From NCBI GenBank assembly GCA_038230995.1, contig JBBRME010000001.1, positions 799 through 64,798 on the forward strand: a DNA stretch of 64,000 nt, read 5' to 3'. Origin of the DNA: Gemmatales bacterium. Lineage in GTDB: Bacteria > Planctomycetota > Planctomycetia > Gemmatales > Gemmataceae. Numbering within the stretch: the stretch's first letter is position 1; each line of letters opens with the position of its first letter. Positions 61,597 to 64,000 of the stretch are shown here, piece by piece. The position numbers and the translations under genes are program-made. The notes under the pieces are model-generated. The model saw only the letters and a list, made by a program, of their open reading frames with translations. It made no database searches and had not been told where the DNA came from.

Positions 61597-61883
61597 CGTT
61601 CCAGTTCCTGAGTCGGTTGAGTTAAGTAGTTCATCTTAGTGGACGTGTGTAGGGAACCCAAGGGAAGCATTGGCATCCCGCACGTGATGCGAAACGTCTA
61701 CTACAGTTCGGAACACCGATGGACTTTGATTTTGAACGCCGGAGGCGTGACGGAGTGTAGCCTGGGTGTGACTGAGCGAAGCGAAGGAACCCCAGGTTCA
61801 ATCGCAGTTAAAGAAGATTCGAGAGTTGGCTGCTTCGCCACACCGTGGCTCGATTCTTTTCCACTATTTACATTTGCATCAAC

Positions 61884-64000
61884 TTACTCGTCGGATTCGA
61901 CGTTGCTCTGGTATTTTTCTAGAATTTCAGCAAGCGAATCCATTGCATTTTTGTAAATGCTTTTCCACATAGTACGAACAGTTGTATCGAGTATGTTTTC
62001 AGCGCACTTTTCGAGATAACTAACAAAACTAGCGCACCGAATCAGCCGATCATCAAATGAATGCACATCTCGTATATCGATACTGGCTACACGATCCATA
62101 ATTGGCGTGTCTACAGTAACGGCATCAAGATAAGGGAAGAAGCTTACTAAATGTGTGATATGGTATCTTCCCAGCTGCGTTATGCAAATCTCTTTGATAT
62201 CATCTGACCAGATTTCAAGTGGTTCGCGTGAATCAATGCACTTTCGATTGAAAAGATAAGATATTGTCCACATGGCATGGCCAACTGTATAGCCGCACTT
62301 GCAAAGATGAGCTGTAACATCGGACACACGTGCAAAAACTTGCTGTTGTTGAGTACTGGCTAGCGATAGTAAGAAACTAAGCGACGATAAGCGTGTAAAA
62401 TGCTCAAGTGGGTTGGCACGTTGGACGTCGAACAAATTACAGAATGGACTCGAAATCGGGTTGTAATGCACTGAATCGCCAAGCATTAGCGTCCGTACAA
62501 CGTGAAAAACACGTATTCGATAGCTTGCATCATTTTGGTAATTGTCTGCTATGTCTTTGCTATCTAAGAACTTGCTGGCTAGAAACCGTTTTACCATATC
62601 GAGCATTGCACGAGTGTTGCTATTCGCAGCAGATGAAAAAATCGCAACTAATTCGCCTCCCCCTTTACTACGAAGTGAATCAATTAAGCACTGCAACACC
62701 GCTGCAACTGTCTGCATCTCGTAACTGAATCTTGAACCATATTTTGATTCTCGACCCGCTTGAATTTTCAATTTGCCTTCTGCATATAGCTTCGCGAACT
62801 TTAGTCTTCGTGCAAGAACGTGGTCTCCATCAGCGCTAGTAATAGATATAACCTTTGTTGAAACGGAGTCCAACACGCCTGAGTCACTAGATTTGTAGAA
62901 TGTAGTTGGACGCAGACATATAAACACAAGACAAGCCCAGTCTCTTGCAATCGCAGATGCACGCAGATATGCCTCTTCTTGCAAGTCTTCACGCCTGTCC
63001 AAATTGTCCATAAATATTGCAATCGAATACTGTCTCTGTGCGCGAAGGTTGATAAAGACCCGCTTAAAGAACTCATGCTTATCTGAGCATATGCTAGAAA
63101 TAAATTCTAGCTCAGCCTTGATGTACTCTGGCGATTCAGGTTTGTATGCTTTTGCTACTGGAGTGTTTTTAAATCGCTTCAGATCATTCCCAAGTGCAGA
63201 TCGTACTAGAGAATCACTAATCACATCTAGATTATAGGGTGGCTTTTGTAACTGATCTTCAATCGAGCTATAAATGTAGTTCGCGACTTCGCTTGCGTTT
63301 GTTGGCCTGTCCAAAAAATCCACGTCAAGCTGAATGTACTTTTGTAGTGTTTTGGATGCCTCAACCATTCTTAGGTAACGCAAGAATGTCGTCTTTCCGT
63401 TGCCTATATTGCCCAATACTATTATAGGCCTTTGTGGCTGATACTTTGCAATCAAGCCTGTGACATTGGTTGAATTTAGAATCGCTGCAGTCACGGTTTC
63501 GTCGTTTTTGTATTTCTGATTTATGATTTCTTTTGCAAATTCCAATGTCGCAGCTTTTGCAGTTGGTACAACATAACATTCTTGCAAAAATTCAAGTTCA
63601 AGTTCTTCGTTCTGAATATCATTCCATACGTCGCCGAGTACTAGTGCAAGCTCTTCCGCTGCTTGGTTGGGATGAGCAGGTGCGGGATAACCAATGATAC
63701 GTTGCGCGAGTTTGTTTGGTGGAGGTGCCGCACGTGAGTCCAACAATCTGTCTAGCACTTGATTTCCTGCAACGCCGCGTGGGCTGAAACACTCCCAAAA
63801 CAACCTGAACTTTACTTCGATAGCCTCGAATGATTCGAATACAATTACTGAACGATCAGAAACAGCAACGCTGTCAAGGTAAGATAGAGATATCAGCCAC
63901 TGATGCCCGTTAGTTATTGCAATGTAACGTGCGCCAAGGCTTGCTGCATAGCCAGTTGCTTGTCTTAGGGCCTGTCTCGAAATAAGTGTTACAACTTTTT
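61884..64000 (-). CDS. large AT-rich foreign gene: HsdR-N/Mrr-like segment + P-loop NTPase + helical C-terminal domain (N-terminus beyond window end)
   Basis: The ORF track gives 61884..63803 (TTG start). Manual translation of 63804-63998 in the same frame has no stop (KVVTLISRQALRQATGYAASLGARYIAITNGHQWLISLSYLD...). Walker A is IVLGNIGNGKTTFL and Walker B-like is SIAIFMDNLDRRE. Confidence 0.7.
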   Translation of the reverse strand, partial: KVVTLISRQALRQATGYAASLGARYIAITNGHQWLISLSYLDSVAVSDRSVIVFESFEAIEVKFRLFWECFSPRGVAGNQVLDRLLDSRAAPPPNKLAQRIIGYPAPAHPNQAAEELALVLGDVWNDIQNEELELEFLQECYVVPTAKAATLEFAKEIINQKYKNDETVTAAILNSTNVTGLIAKYQPQRPIIVLGNIGNGKTTFLRYLRMVEASKTLQKYIQLDVDFLDRPTNASEVANYIYSSIEDQLQKPPYNLDVISDSLVRSALGNDLKRFKNTPVAKAYKPESPEYIKAELEFISSICSDKHEFFKRVFINLRAQRQYSIAIFMDNLDRREDLQEEAYLRASAIARDWACLVFICLRPTTFYKSSDSGVLDSVSTKVISITSADGDHVLARRLKFAKLYAEGKLKIQAGRESKYGSRFSYEMQTVAAVLQCLIDSLRSKGGGELVAIFSSAANSNTRAMLDMVKRFLASKFLDSKDIADNYQNDASYRIRVFHVVRTLMLGDSVHYNPISSPFCNLFDVQRANPLEHFTRLSSLSFLLSLASTQQQQVFARVSDVTAHLCKCGYTVGHAMWTISYLFNRKCIDSREPLEIWSDDIKEICITQLGRYHITHLVSFFPYLDAVTVDTPIMDRVASIDIRDVHSFDDRLIRCASFVSYLEKCAENILDTTVRTMWKSIYKNAMDSLAEILEKYQSNVESDE

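Follow-up and report, generated by a model that had tools for sequence, protein, structure and literature searches.

The AT-rich end of the 64,000-nt stretch of Gemmatales bacterium DNA analysed here (the window) carries the 3' part of a solitary, transferred gene for an approximately 820-residue protein that we read as a nucleotide-gated DNA endonuclease, most likely acting in defence against invading phage or plasmid DNA; we give this reading a probability of about 0.6. We infer the defence role from the architecture of the protein, the mobility of its genes and their genomic context. The family to which it belongs is large and unnamed, its design is familiar, and the gene is a credible candidate immunity gene.

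A horizontally acquired gene upstream of prfB

The features of the locus are as follows (positions are those of the window).

60465..61688, minus strand: native flank, consisting of prfB and about 90 nt of conserved upstream sequence
60465-61596, minus strand: prfB (ATG at 61596-61594), directly downstream of the nuclease-NTPase gene and on the same strand
61689..61883, no strand assigned: non-coding stretch 3' of the gene, without counterpart in the closest relative
61884..64000, minus strand: nuclease-NTPase gene, 3' 2.1 kb (open frame; 66% identity to the homologue P0001; G+C and GC3)
61884-61886, minus strand: stop codon TAA of the nuclease-NTPase gene

An earlier reading of this DNA from sequence only had described an AT-rich foreign island with A/T-ending codons, occupied by a single minus-strand gene whose N-terminus lay outside the window. 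The compositional part of that description is borne out by a G+C content of 0.426 at 61884-64000 versus 0.574 at 1-61800 (z = -8.3), which leaves the window copy 15 points under its host, the lowest value of any other 2.1-kb segment in the window being 0.536, and by a GC3 of 0.38 versus 0.54-0.79 in all 35 other long ORFs. In a 400-bp profile G+C begins to drop around 61.6-61.8 kb and has come down to 0.41 by 61.8-62.2 kb. The ORF listing gives 61884..63803 on the minus strand with a TTG start (639 aa), and the same frame stays open to 63998, that is, for 704 codons and the stop. Because the colinear alignment with P0001, a homologue from Gemmata algarum, starts at P0001 residue 122, the TTG at 63803 is an internal codon and some 115 N-terminal residues (about 350 nt) lie past 64000. 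The catalytic D/E-x-K segment of the window copy is also beyond 64000, and this motif was read in the homologues alone; the visible part retains every family-invariant residue. The word island goes too far, a single gene being all that is seen within the window.

Comparison of the prfB flank in relatives, proposed in the earlier reading, found the gene missing upstream of prfB in five Gemmataceae relatives. In the closest relative (locus L042, RF2 94% identical) similarity to the window begins only at 61688, and the Gemmata algarum homologue sits at a different locus. Composition and absence from this flank in the five relatives thus support horizontal acquisition, and the 'hypothetical protein' annotated beside prfB should be regarded as a recent arrival outside the core Gemmataceae genome. 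A scan of genome contigs returned no copy above 66% identity, and exact-pattern scans of metagenome contigs for the gene end and the prfB start gave no match. The non-coding stretch 61689..61883 contains a GC-rich hairpin, GCCACGGTGTGGC, at 61837-61849, and prfB has its +1 frameshift site, CTTTGAC, at 61530-61524. The TsaE protein encoded nearby had its sole exact match in a 1-kb Logan contig.

Domain organization and the nuclease

P0001 (821 aa, 66% identity) is the closest full-length homologue, and its residues 122-819 align colinearly with the window protein with just two one-residue gaps. The AlphaFold model of P0001 (pLDDT 91.7, pTM 0.79) comprises, in order, a PD-(D/E)xK nuclease, a helical linker, a P-loop NTPase, a helical lid, a winged helix and a C-terminal helical domain, of which the window encodes the following, all on the minus strand.

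63813..63998: C-terminal part of the PD-(D/E)xK (HsdR-N/BpuSI-N/Mrr-like) domain, window aa 1-62 (invariant columns; domain model)
63948-63962: motif QATGY
63897-63914: motif TNGHQW
63438..63812: helical linker with a conserved 'SRxAPPPxKL', window aa 63-187 (model; mean column entropy 2.15)
62841..63437: P-loop NTPase core, window aa 188-386 (motifs, model strand order, fold matches)
63387-63413: Walker A, GNIGNGKTT
62991-63023: Walker B, IAIFMDNLDRR
62901-62921: ICLRPTT, with Arg at the sensor-1 position
62349..62840: helical (lid-like) domain, window aa 387-550 (model; invariant columns)
62178..62348: winged helix-turn-helix, window aa 551-607 (H-H-H-strand-strand pattern, P0001 665-722)
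61887..62177: C-terminal helical domain, window aa 608-704 (model; conserved columns)

The N-terminal part is predicted to adopt a PD-(D/E)xK fold of the restriction-endonuclease kind, with a catalytic set that is invariant in the homologues. The sequence-only reading had taken the pattern Q-x3-Y...TNG-x-W for the tail of such a domain, rightly so in that the upstream catalytic residues are invariant in 74 aligned homologues, in which E28, D64, E78-A-K80, Q126, Y130 and N143-G-x-Q146 never vary; E28, D64 and E78-A-K80 are also retained in enteric, Phaeobacter and split variants of the family. The invariant residues of the visible nuclease part are Q13, Y17, N30, G31 and Q33 (window numbering). 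Modelled separately, the domain (pLDDT 91.9) shows the alpha-beta-beta-beta-alpha-beta succession of elements expected for this fold, and its best Foldseek matches were BpuSI, an HsdR fragment (probability 0.94), Cas4 and NucC, all weak (E 0.03-0.1), none reaching E<=0.001. Among Pfam profiles, HSDR_N (PF04313) rises above its cut-off in one protein, P0084 (25.7 versus 25.1 bits), and reaches E<0.01 in 2/40 members, and HSDR_N_2 (PF13588) gives E 0.004 in three variants.

Further along the chain, the lid contains an invariant N459...R463 ('SNTR'; family consensus GNxR) and an invariant H533 within PLEHF (aa 530-534, window numbering). The ORC/Cdc6 sensor-2 motif is GDxR, which the lid GNxR, judged by eye, would appear to resemble. 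The winged helix suggested earlier for GYTVGHAMWTISYLFNRKCI (62235-62294) falls inside the predicted winged helix-turn-helix of P0001 residues 665-722, the most variable region of the family (mean entropy 2.60, zero conserved columns). The C-terminal domain bears a conserved 'Y-x-D-A-x-x-V-D-T-P-I' block at 62094-62114. In all, only about 320 residues follow the NTPase and form no repeats in the model, so that there is no long sensor of Avs type.

An ORC/Cdc6-STAND-type NTPase

The centre of the protein is an AAA+ P-loop NTPase of the ORC/Cdc6-STAND type; the Walker A and B motifs noted earlier are real, and Foldseek places the domain in the ORC/Cdc6-STAND assemblage with E-values of 2e-5 to 1e-3. 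The core has the lowest entropy of all domains (1.53) and, in the model, a helical insert of about 90 aa between strands 2 and 3. Searched against the PDB, the whole model yielded ORC4, ORC1, Cdc6, Orc1 and BrxC as its top 18 matches (E 1.9e-5 to 1.3e-4, probability 1.00), the low TM-scores of these matches (0.35-0.44 on the target) being due to the multi-domain nature of the query. Matches to STAND proteins, NLRs among them, comprised NRC1, a wheat resistosome, CED-4, Dark and Avs5 (E 2e-4 to 2e-3). The protein displays both the layout of STAND proteins (AAA+-like core, helical domain and winged helix, with flanking effector and sensor parts) and the fold-level likeness to ORC/Cdc6 (AAA+ base, lid, C-terminal winged helix); since the AAA+-lid-winged-helix layout is common to the two groups, it does not separate them.

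The Walker B motif is D444-N-L-D447-R in the family, with D, N, L and D invariant, DNLDR in the window protein and DNVDQ in the enteric branch. This D-N-h-D lacks the classical catalytic Glu beside the Mg-binding Asp and has an acidic residue two positions on. The classical hhhhDE form is absent, there is no invariant Arg between strands 4 and 5 in the position of an arginine finger, and the motif departs from the NACHT signature, which has been defined as D[GAS]hDE (10.1101/2022.07.19.500537). Pfam NACHT (PF05729) scored at best 17.6 bits versus a 26.7 cut-off, with E<0.01 in 2/40 members, and the ORC-CDC6-like profile PF24389 stayed below its 27-bit cut-off, with a best E of 5.8e-5 and matches in 9/40 members.

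Taken as a whole, the family stays under the thresholds of all Pfam, NCBIfam and PADLOC models, and single-sequence and profile searches of Pfam, NCBIfam, PADLOC and PDB sequences returned P-loop-level matches at most. PADLOC-DB v2.0.0 was negative for 40 members and the plasmid copies, its P-loop-level matches being PtuA (0.019), PDC-M28C (2.5e-4), mad8 (~1e-3) and AriA (0.002); the Avs, AVAST, NLR and bNACHT models gave none at E<=0.01 in the same proteins. With the NACHT signature and the Avs, bNACHT and other PADLOC models all failing, an Avs-like identity, one of the likenesses mentioned earlier, is not supported. The accompanying proposal that the gene is undescribed holds for the profile libraries and the literature searched, in which WP_001349602, WP_047062017, WP_088587038 and WP_112869014 are uncited, but large computational STAND censuses may include the family. 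One such census of 2026 lists 589 clades and analysed only sensors of at least 400 aa (PMC13581612).

Family size, distribution and mobility

Family proteins are about 800 aa long and number 948 cluster representatives at E<=1e-30 in an exhaustive profile search, a minimum count of clusters at 50% identity. Two peptide patterns found 34 matching loci among 185,579 species genomes, patchily spread over at least seven phyla (Planctomycetota, Verrucomicrobiota, Bacteroidota, Desulfobacterota, Nitrospirota, Acidobacteriota and Actinomycetota); named matches above 40% identity are mostly from Planctomycetota. In 28/30 loci the A+T content of the gene exceeds that of its flanks, the mean difference being 10 points.

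Distant full-length members (hhalign E 5.6e-54) occur on 27 plasmids, 14 of them conjugative. They include Klebsiella IncF plasmids (WP_047062017.1 is a Klebsiella plasmid protein), a Shewanella plasmid on which the gene adjoins a type II R-M system, and a Phaeobacter plasmid whose variant has two added cold-shock nucleic-acid-binding domains. In E. coli, 8/5426 genomes carry a homologue, such as the prophage protein WP_001349602.1, and in both genomes examined a lambdoid prophage carries it as cargo at one shared position, with the replication genes on one side and hokD on the other. Some copies are disrupted by IS elements, as expected of a costly accessory gene. A phage origin is unsupported: tblastn against 50,697 phage genomes found no homologue, and a viral structure library gave weak AAA+ matches only.

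In a natural split variant (hhalign probability 99.9, E 2.6e-32), broken inside the linker, one gene for the nuclease and linker (240 aa) lies 15 bp ahead of another for the NTPase-winged helix part (572 aa); a type I R-M system adjoins this locus, as does a PIN/PhD toxin-antitoxin pair. This arrangement of adjacent genes suggests that the nuclease and NTPase halves are functionally linked. Of the apparently 'nuclease-less' relatives of about 550 aa, one is such a split gene with the nuclease just upstream, two lie at contig ends, and that of Vibrio casei is truncated by IS3.

No neighbour of at least 80 aa is conserved in the 34 loci. The two genes on each side are chiefly housekeeping genes, so that enrichment in defence islands is not demonstrated, with scattered defence or mobile neighbours: HTH_17 (three), DDE transposase (two), HNH (two), AbiEi/Eii, a PLD-helicase and mad1/mad6. 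A Tn7-like TnsA/TnsC-type fusion or transposon module was considered and set aside, DDE transposases making up 2/114 neighbours with no conserved transposase or integrase, as was a hidden small partner gene, no ORF of at least 35 aa within 1.5 kb being common to more than two loci.

Proposed function and alternative explanations

We propose that the NTPase acts as a switch rather than a motor. A cue, most likely a nucleic-acid feature of the invader and less likely a phage protein, would together with NTP binding drive oligomerisation, bringing the N-terminal nuclease domains together to cut DNA. Specificity would be provided by the variable winged helix, joined in one plasmid branch by the two cold-shock domains, and, since the gene is always alone, presumably no methyltransferase or partner is needed. 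More tentatively, the family could constitute a widespread and hitherto unnoticed class of single-chain, methyltransferase-free restriction enzymes in which the hypervariable winged helix loads an ORC/Cdc6-type ATP switch onto invader DNA and thereby licenses an HsdR-type nuclease, cold-shock domains assisting in some plasmid variants.

The alternative closest to the proposed endonuclease is that the protein, like bNACHT25 or Avs, is a STAND sensor that detects phage proteins and triggers abortive infection, a reading we consider rather unlikely. Here the winged helix and helical domains would bind a phage protein directly or via a host chaperone, the NTPase would oligomerise, and the nuclease would degrade all cell DNA and kill the cell; gating is alike in both explanations, and they differ in the cue (protein instead of nucleic acid) and the outcome (suicide instead of restriction). 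The domain order is that of bNACHT25/32 (PMC12169576), there is a likeness to STAND/NACHT motifs (10.1101/2022.07.19.500537) in the sensor-1 Arg ('CLRP') and the D-x-h-D Walker B, the hypervariability towards the C-terminus parallels that of the SNaCT domain of bNACHT01, and NRC1, the wheat resistosome, CED-4, Dark and Avs5 are among the fold matches. The best fold matches, however, are DNA-binding ORC/Cdc6 proteins, a variable winged helix and, in one branch, cold-shock domains are typical nucleic-acid binders, neither D-N-L-D-R nor the enteric D-N-V-D-Q conforms to D[GAS]hDE, and the protein has neither an Avs/bNACHT match in PADLOC nor a repeat-type sensor. A role in the maintenance or competition of mobile elements, for instance through a nicking nuclease joined to an ORC/Cdc6-like initiator or loader and serving the replication, integration or addiction of the carrier element, is improbable. 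Winged-helix ORC/Cdc6 proteins initiate replication and share their clade with transposition ATPases (PMC10853773), and plasmids and a prophage carry members of the family, in the prophage beside replication genes, but most chromosomal copies lie among ordinary genes, the 34 loci share no conserved integrase, transposase, relaxase or origin-like feature, carrier plasmids possess RepB or IncF replicons of their own, and IS-disrupted copies persist in otherwise intact elements.

That the copy in this genome is a decaying remnant, acquired and then inactivated by, for example, truncation or mutation of its N-terminus, seems slightly less probable still. Its first ~115 codons are outside the window, its codon usage differs strongly from the host's, and copies elsewhere are split into two or three ORFs (L006, L009, L018, L033, L034) or IS-interrupted; yet the visible frame is uninterrupted over its 704 codons and aligns colinearly with a homologue of 66% identity, with the visible invariant residues kept, and several split copies derive from long-read MAGs, in which frameshift errors are common. 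Least probable is a housekeeping enzyme of DNA repair or recombination in Planctomycetes. Combinations of PD-(D/E)xK domains and ATPases do occur in repair proteins, and the concentration of the closer named matches in Planctomycetota would suit this explanation, but absence from the prfB flank of five Gemmataceae and a different locus in Gemmata algarum, occurrence at 34 loci in 185,579 species genomes (by the two peptide patterns) and in 8/5426 E. coli genomes, and a systematically foreign composition all argue against it.

If the prediction of a nucleotide-gated defence endonuclease is correct, an unnamed family would join the single-gene immune nucleases as a compact and tractable case of an ORC/Cdc6-STAND switch gating a restriction-type nuclease, without repeat sensor or methyltransferase, whose hypervariable winged helix would offer a direct handle on the evolution of specificity. 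Were the single-chain class also real, it would represent a form of DNA self/non-self discrimination distinct from R-M, McrBC-type Type IV and protein-sensing Avs/NLR systems. The existence of enteric homologues opens these ideas to test by routine phage and plasmid assays in E. coli.

Relationship to known systems

Avs proteins are much larger than the approximately 800 residues of this family and have large TPR-like sensors, in contrast to the repeat-free ~320 residues found here after the NTPase. The family shares with Avs3/Avs4-type proteins its general logic, in which an NTPase stands between a nuclease effector and a module for recognition at the C-terminus; Mrr_cat or BpuSI_N effectors have been noted in Avs-type proteins (PMC9122126), and BpuSI is the best match of the nuclease domain and EfAvs5 one of the fold matches. 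Similar in design are the bacterial NLR-related proteins bNACHT25 and bNACHT32 (clade 6; Kibby et al.), in which a PD-(D/E)xK domain, a NACHT module and a helical C-terminal domain, once activated, degrade DNA and protect against phage (10.1101/2022.07.19.500537; PMC12169576). Common to both are an N-terminal PD-(D/E)xK DNase, an NTPase of ORC/STAND type and a helical C-terminal domain free of repeats, all encoded by a solo gene in accessory regions, as well as, presumably in our family, an NTPase switch that releases the nuclease. There is, however, no detectable sequence relationship, NACHT D[GAS]hDE contrasts with D-N-h-D-[RQ], the key residues of bNACHT25 (D48, H506) differ in position from D64 and the invariant His 647 of the family, and the family is set apart by its hypervariable winged helix and by the ~125-aa linker that separates its nuclease from its NTPase.

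The ORC/Cdc6 clade, which includes AAA+ proteins of conflict systems such as BrxC of BREX and SspC, provides the best structural matches (ORC4, Cdc6, Orc1 and the N-terminal part of BrxC), and the family has in common with it the order of AAA+ core, helical bundle and winged helix and the association with a restriction-endonuclease-fold domain. ORC/Cdc6+REase neighbourhoods and CR-ATPase+REase effectors have been described in such systems (PMC10853773; PMC12839542), but BREX, Ssp and HerA/FtsK-linked systems are multi-gene or have the REase C-terminal to or inside the ATPase, whereas in this family it is N-terminal and the gene stands alone. With type I HsdR the family appears to share the N-terminal nuclease subfamily (HSDR_N/HSDR_N_2; fold match to V. 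vulnificus HsdR, 3h1t) and differs in having no SF2 helicase motor (ResIII/DEAD was not found in Pfam scans or the model) and no conserved HsdM/HsdS, that is, methylase or specificity genes. Type IV systems (McrBC, Mrr and the DpnI-type nuclease-winged helix) resemble it in their PD-(D/E)xK nuclease, variable DNA-binding module, presumed coupling of NTPase to cleavage and lack of a cognate methyltransferase, of which the 34 loci, with no conserved neighbour, give no sign; the family differs in the absence of a McrB-type GTPase and of any type IV model match, and in carrying nuclease and NTPase in one chain. One member is annotated as 'predicted type IV restriction endonuclease' by IMG and by a Klebsiella record.

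Compositional drop and reading frame

An abrupt compositional drop near the end of the window had been noticed in the sequence-only reading, and it proved to be real and strong: positions 61884-64000 have a G+C fraction of 0.426 against 0.574 in the preceding 61.8 kb (z = -8.3), the minimum of any other 2.1-kb stretch of the window being 0.536, and third-position G+C is 0.38 in the nuclease-NTPase gene against 0.54-0.79 in all 35 other long ORFs. As that reading had also held, the low-GC stretch is a single minus-strand frame open to 63998; it was counted here as 704 codons, and every motif quoted from it was recovered where it had been placed. 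Mechanical ORF listing gave 61884..63803 with a TTG start; given that alignment with P0001, the 821-aa Gemmata algarum homologue, begins at P0001 residue 122 and runs colinearly, broken by two gaps of one residue each, the TTG at 63803 is an internal codon. About 115 codons of the gene lie beyond the window end. The term "island" goes further than the window allows, as the AT-rich end shows one gene, from which an island cannot be demonstrated.

The prfB flank

Horizontal acquisition, the origin first proposed for the gene, is well supported by its low G+C and GC3 together with its distribution: upstream of prfB it is never present in five relatives, where a short-chain dehydrogenase, an M24 peptidase, a DUF4114 protein and an unrelated function-unknown protein are found. 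The closest RF2 proteins, on metagenome contigs, are 94% and 85% identical to that of the window (the nearest named one, Fimbriiglobus RF2, 71%), prfB-tsaE synteny is retained in two of the five relatives, and similarity between the window and its closest relative stops at position 61688. The Gemmata algarum homologue is located at an unrelated locus. The locus upstream of prfB looks like an acquisition site in this host, a Gemmataceae planctomycete.

The prfB start in the ORF list (61568) is 28 nt too late because the gene carries a programmed +1 frameshift at a CTTTGAC heptamer, invariant in 5/5 aligned Gemmataceae relatives. Its elements are:

61596-61594, minus strand, ATG start codon
61538-61534, minus strand, Shine-Dalgarno-like GGAGG
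61530-61524, minus strand, CTT TGA C frameshift site

A perfect hairpin, GCCACGGTGTGGC, lies at 61837-61849, 35 nt downstream of the nuclease-NTPase stop codon and within a stretch of 195 nt that the closest relative lacks; a terminator scan scores it on the plus strand only, where a T-rich tail follows it. Directly 3' of prfB-tsaE, one Gemmataceae relative has a gene for a small HNH endonuclease (L041:9983-10360); the prfB neighbourhood may be prone to small insertions generally.

A large family outside the curated libraries

That the protein could be assigned to no named family was borne out by Pfam, NCBIfam, PADLOC and PDB sequences, which yielded sub-threshold P-loop matches only (ORC-CDC6-like, NACHT, AAA_16, ATPase_2, nSTAND5, PtuA). 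A word-seeded search recovered 128 relatives, nearly all of about 800 aa and nearly all annotated as hypothetical, the best being that of Gemmata algarum JC673 (66% identity). When 1.84 billion cluster representatives were searched exhaustively with a profile, 3362 matched at E<=1e-3, 2026 at 1e-10 and 948 at 1e-30. The protein belongs to a large and coherent family, which may already figure, without a name, in large STAND censuses.

Domain architecture and fold

An AlphaFold2 model of full-length P0001, built from a 100-sequence alignment (pLDDT 91.7, pTM 0.79), and the residues invariant across the family agree with the architecture first read from the window, namely the end of a nuclease domain, a P-loop NTPase and a helical C-terminus with a winged helix.

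Domains of P0001 (residues), with mean column entropy of the family alignment
1-175, alpha/beta nuclease domain, invariant E28, D64, E78-A-K80 and Q126; entropy 1.60
176-300, helical linker with a conserved 'SRxAPPPxKL' stretch; entropy 2.15
301-500, five-stranded P-loop core of the NTPase, Walker A G309-x2-G-x-G-K315, helical insert of ~90 aa between strands 2 and 3, Walker B D444-N-L-D447 closing strand 3, invariant Arg R477 ('CLRP') following strand 4 at the sensor-1 position; entropy 1.53
501-664, helical lid-like domain, invariant N573...R577 and H647; entropy 1.98
665-722, winged helix, the most variable region, with no conserved column; entropy 2.60
723-821, helical C-terminal domain with a conserved Y-x-D-A-x-x-x-D-T-P block; entropy 2.26

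Among the family's homologues, the alignment shows the predicted catalytic and nucleotide-binding residues to be invariant and the winged helix to be hypervariable. Foldseek against the PDB placed ORC4, ORC1, Cdc6, archaeal Orc1 and the N-terminal part of BrxC at the top (E 2e-5 to 1e-4), followed by the STAND proteins wheat resistosome, NRC1, Dark, CED-4 and EfAvs5. Modelled by itself (pLDDT 91.9), the N-terminal domain best matched BpuSI, a Vibrio HsdR fragment (probability 0.94), Cas4 and NucC. As the E-values of these matches are only 0.03-0.1, its assignment to the PD-(D/E)xK fold leans mainly on the invariance of E28, D64, E78-A-K80, Q126, Y130 and N143-G-x-Q146 in 74 sequences, on Pfam HSDR_N/HSDR_N_2 matches in family members and on the expected order of secondary-structure elements; the catalytic segment of the window copy itself lies beyond 64000.

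A solitary and mobile gene

All ORFs of at least 80 aa within 10 kb were clustered at 34 reference-genome loci from Planctomycetota, Verrucomicrobiota, Bacteroidota, Desulfosarcina, Nitrospirota, Acidobacteriota and Actinomycetota. No cluster other than that of the gene exceeds three of the 34 loci, and no small partner ORF (at least 35 aa, within 1.5 kb) is common to more than two: the gene is solitary. Its composition is foreign at almost all loci: it is AT-richer than its flanks by at least 3 points in 28/30 (mean, 10 points). The two genes on each side are mostly housekeeping genes, and defence-island enrichment was not established at these 34 loci; a minority are of mobile or defence type (HTH_17 x3, DDE transposase x2, HNH x2, AbiEi/Eii, PLD-helicase, mad1/mad6).

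The homologous region is divided into two or three ORFs at five loci (L006, L009, L018, L033, L034), and some of these splits may be long-read assembly errors. The E. coli matches H26 and H27 and locus L056 also belong to the broken copies; where IS1 or IS3 has inserted into a copy, this is a genuine inactivation event.

With tblastn, full-length relatives at 20-28% identity were detected on 27 plasmids, of which 14 are conjugative; the same search of 50,697 phage genomes recovered no family relative. A Shewanella plasmid copy is flanked by IS30 and a type II R-M system, a Klebsiella IncF copy is solo with IS110 nearby, and a Vibrio casei copy is cut by IS3. The enteric branch retains all motifs, with homology over 741 columns (hhalign probability 100, E 5.6e-54). 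Copies occur in 8/5426 complete E. coli genomes, two of them split, one by IS1. In both of the two genomes inspected among these eight, the chromosomal homologue (L052:12001-14505; L053:6001-8505) occupies an identical position in a lambdoid, Qin/Rac-like prophage, between replication genes (replisome-organizer/DUF977) and hokD. Since relBE adjoins hokD in the Qin prophage of K-12, this slot may be a cargo hotspot.

A 973-aa variant on a Phaeobacter inhibens conjugative plasmid (L055:5680-8601) has the common architecture to residue 777 (E 2e-38) followed by two additional C-terminal cold-shock domains (Pfam CSD 7e-18); its RefSeq name is 'cold shock domain-containing protein'. A Rhodobacteraceae plasmid (H18) has a near-identical arrangement. 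At metagenomic locus L049 (5264-7719) the protein is split, a 240-aa nuclease+linker gene (hhalign probability 99.9, E 2.6e-32) lying 15 bp upstream of a 572-aa NTPase-wHTH gene, and the two genes adjoin a type I R-M system (HsdR, N6 methylase) in which a PIN/PhD pair is embedded. The occurrence of both fused and split forms shows the nuclease and NTPase modules to be functionally coupled. About six further relatives of ~550 aa share a DNADQRD Walker B and make up a sub-branch; their contigs stop where the gene starts.

Relation to known systems and proposed mode of action

The closest functional analogues are bNACHT25/32, in which a PD-(D/E)xK domain, a NACHT domain and a helical C-terminal domain follow one another, and which protect against phage, sensing via DnaJ and degrading DNA once activated (10.1101/2022.07.19.500537; PMC12169576); nuclease-bearing Avs proteins come next (PMC9122126; PMC13581612). 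Membership in either group was rejected, the family having DNLDR in place of the NACHT signature D[GAS]hDE, no PADLOC model match and no repeat sensor; scores for the Pfam NACHT and ORC-CDC6-like models fall below their cut-offs. Of the STAND/Avs-like or ORC/Cdc6-like look first ascribed to the protein, the likeness of fold to ORC/Cdc6 and then to STAND proteins stands, and Avs membership does not. The family is also similar to the ORC/Cdc6+REase combinations of a computational catalogue (PMC10853773), from which it differs in being a single gene with a predicted active REase at its N-terminus; like Type IV enzymes, it has no methyltransferase. The design is familiar. The family is large and has no name, and its E. 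coli and Klebsiella members make it open to direct testing.

A defence function is plausible (probability about 0.6), the protein being a putative NTPase-gated single-chain immune nuclease. The NTPase would be a switch rather than a translocating motor, because its Walker B has no Glu beside the Mg-binding Asp and an acidic residue two positions further, as in NACHT proteins. The variable wHTH, with cold-shock domains in one branch, would recognise the cue, and NTP-dependent oligomerisation would then juxtapose the nuclease domains. For the cue itself we tentatively favour a nucleic acid, as binding of nucleic acids is typical of both wHTH and cold-shock domains, and the model's best fold matches are to DNA-binding ORC/Cdc6 proteins; a phage protein, the type of cue associated with bNACHT25 and Avs, seems unlikely.

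Other low-GC spots in the window

57027-57329, minus strand, MazF/PemK-type toxin (Pfam PemK_toxin, 2e-16)
57326-57562, minus strand, 78-aa ORF upstream of and overlapping the toxin start, with no Pfam match
59364-59567, minus strand, CsrA-family regulator (Pfam 2e-26)

The 78-aa ORF is likely the antitoxin; the pair (57024-57562) sits in a local lower-GC patch (0.485-0.50) and could represent a second, small module that was acquired. The CsrA-family gene, between an isopropylmalate/isocitrate-type dehydrogenase gene and tsaE, coincides with a mild GC dip (0.485-0.505) at 59.4-60.0 kb.
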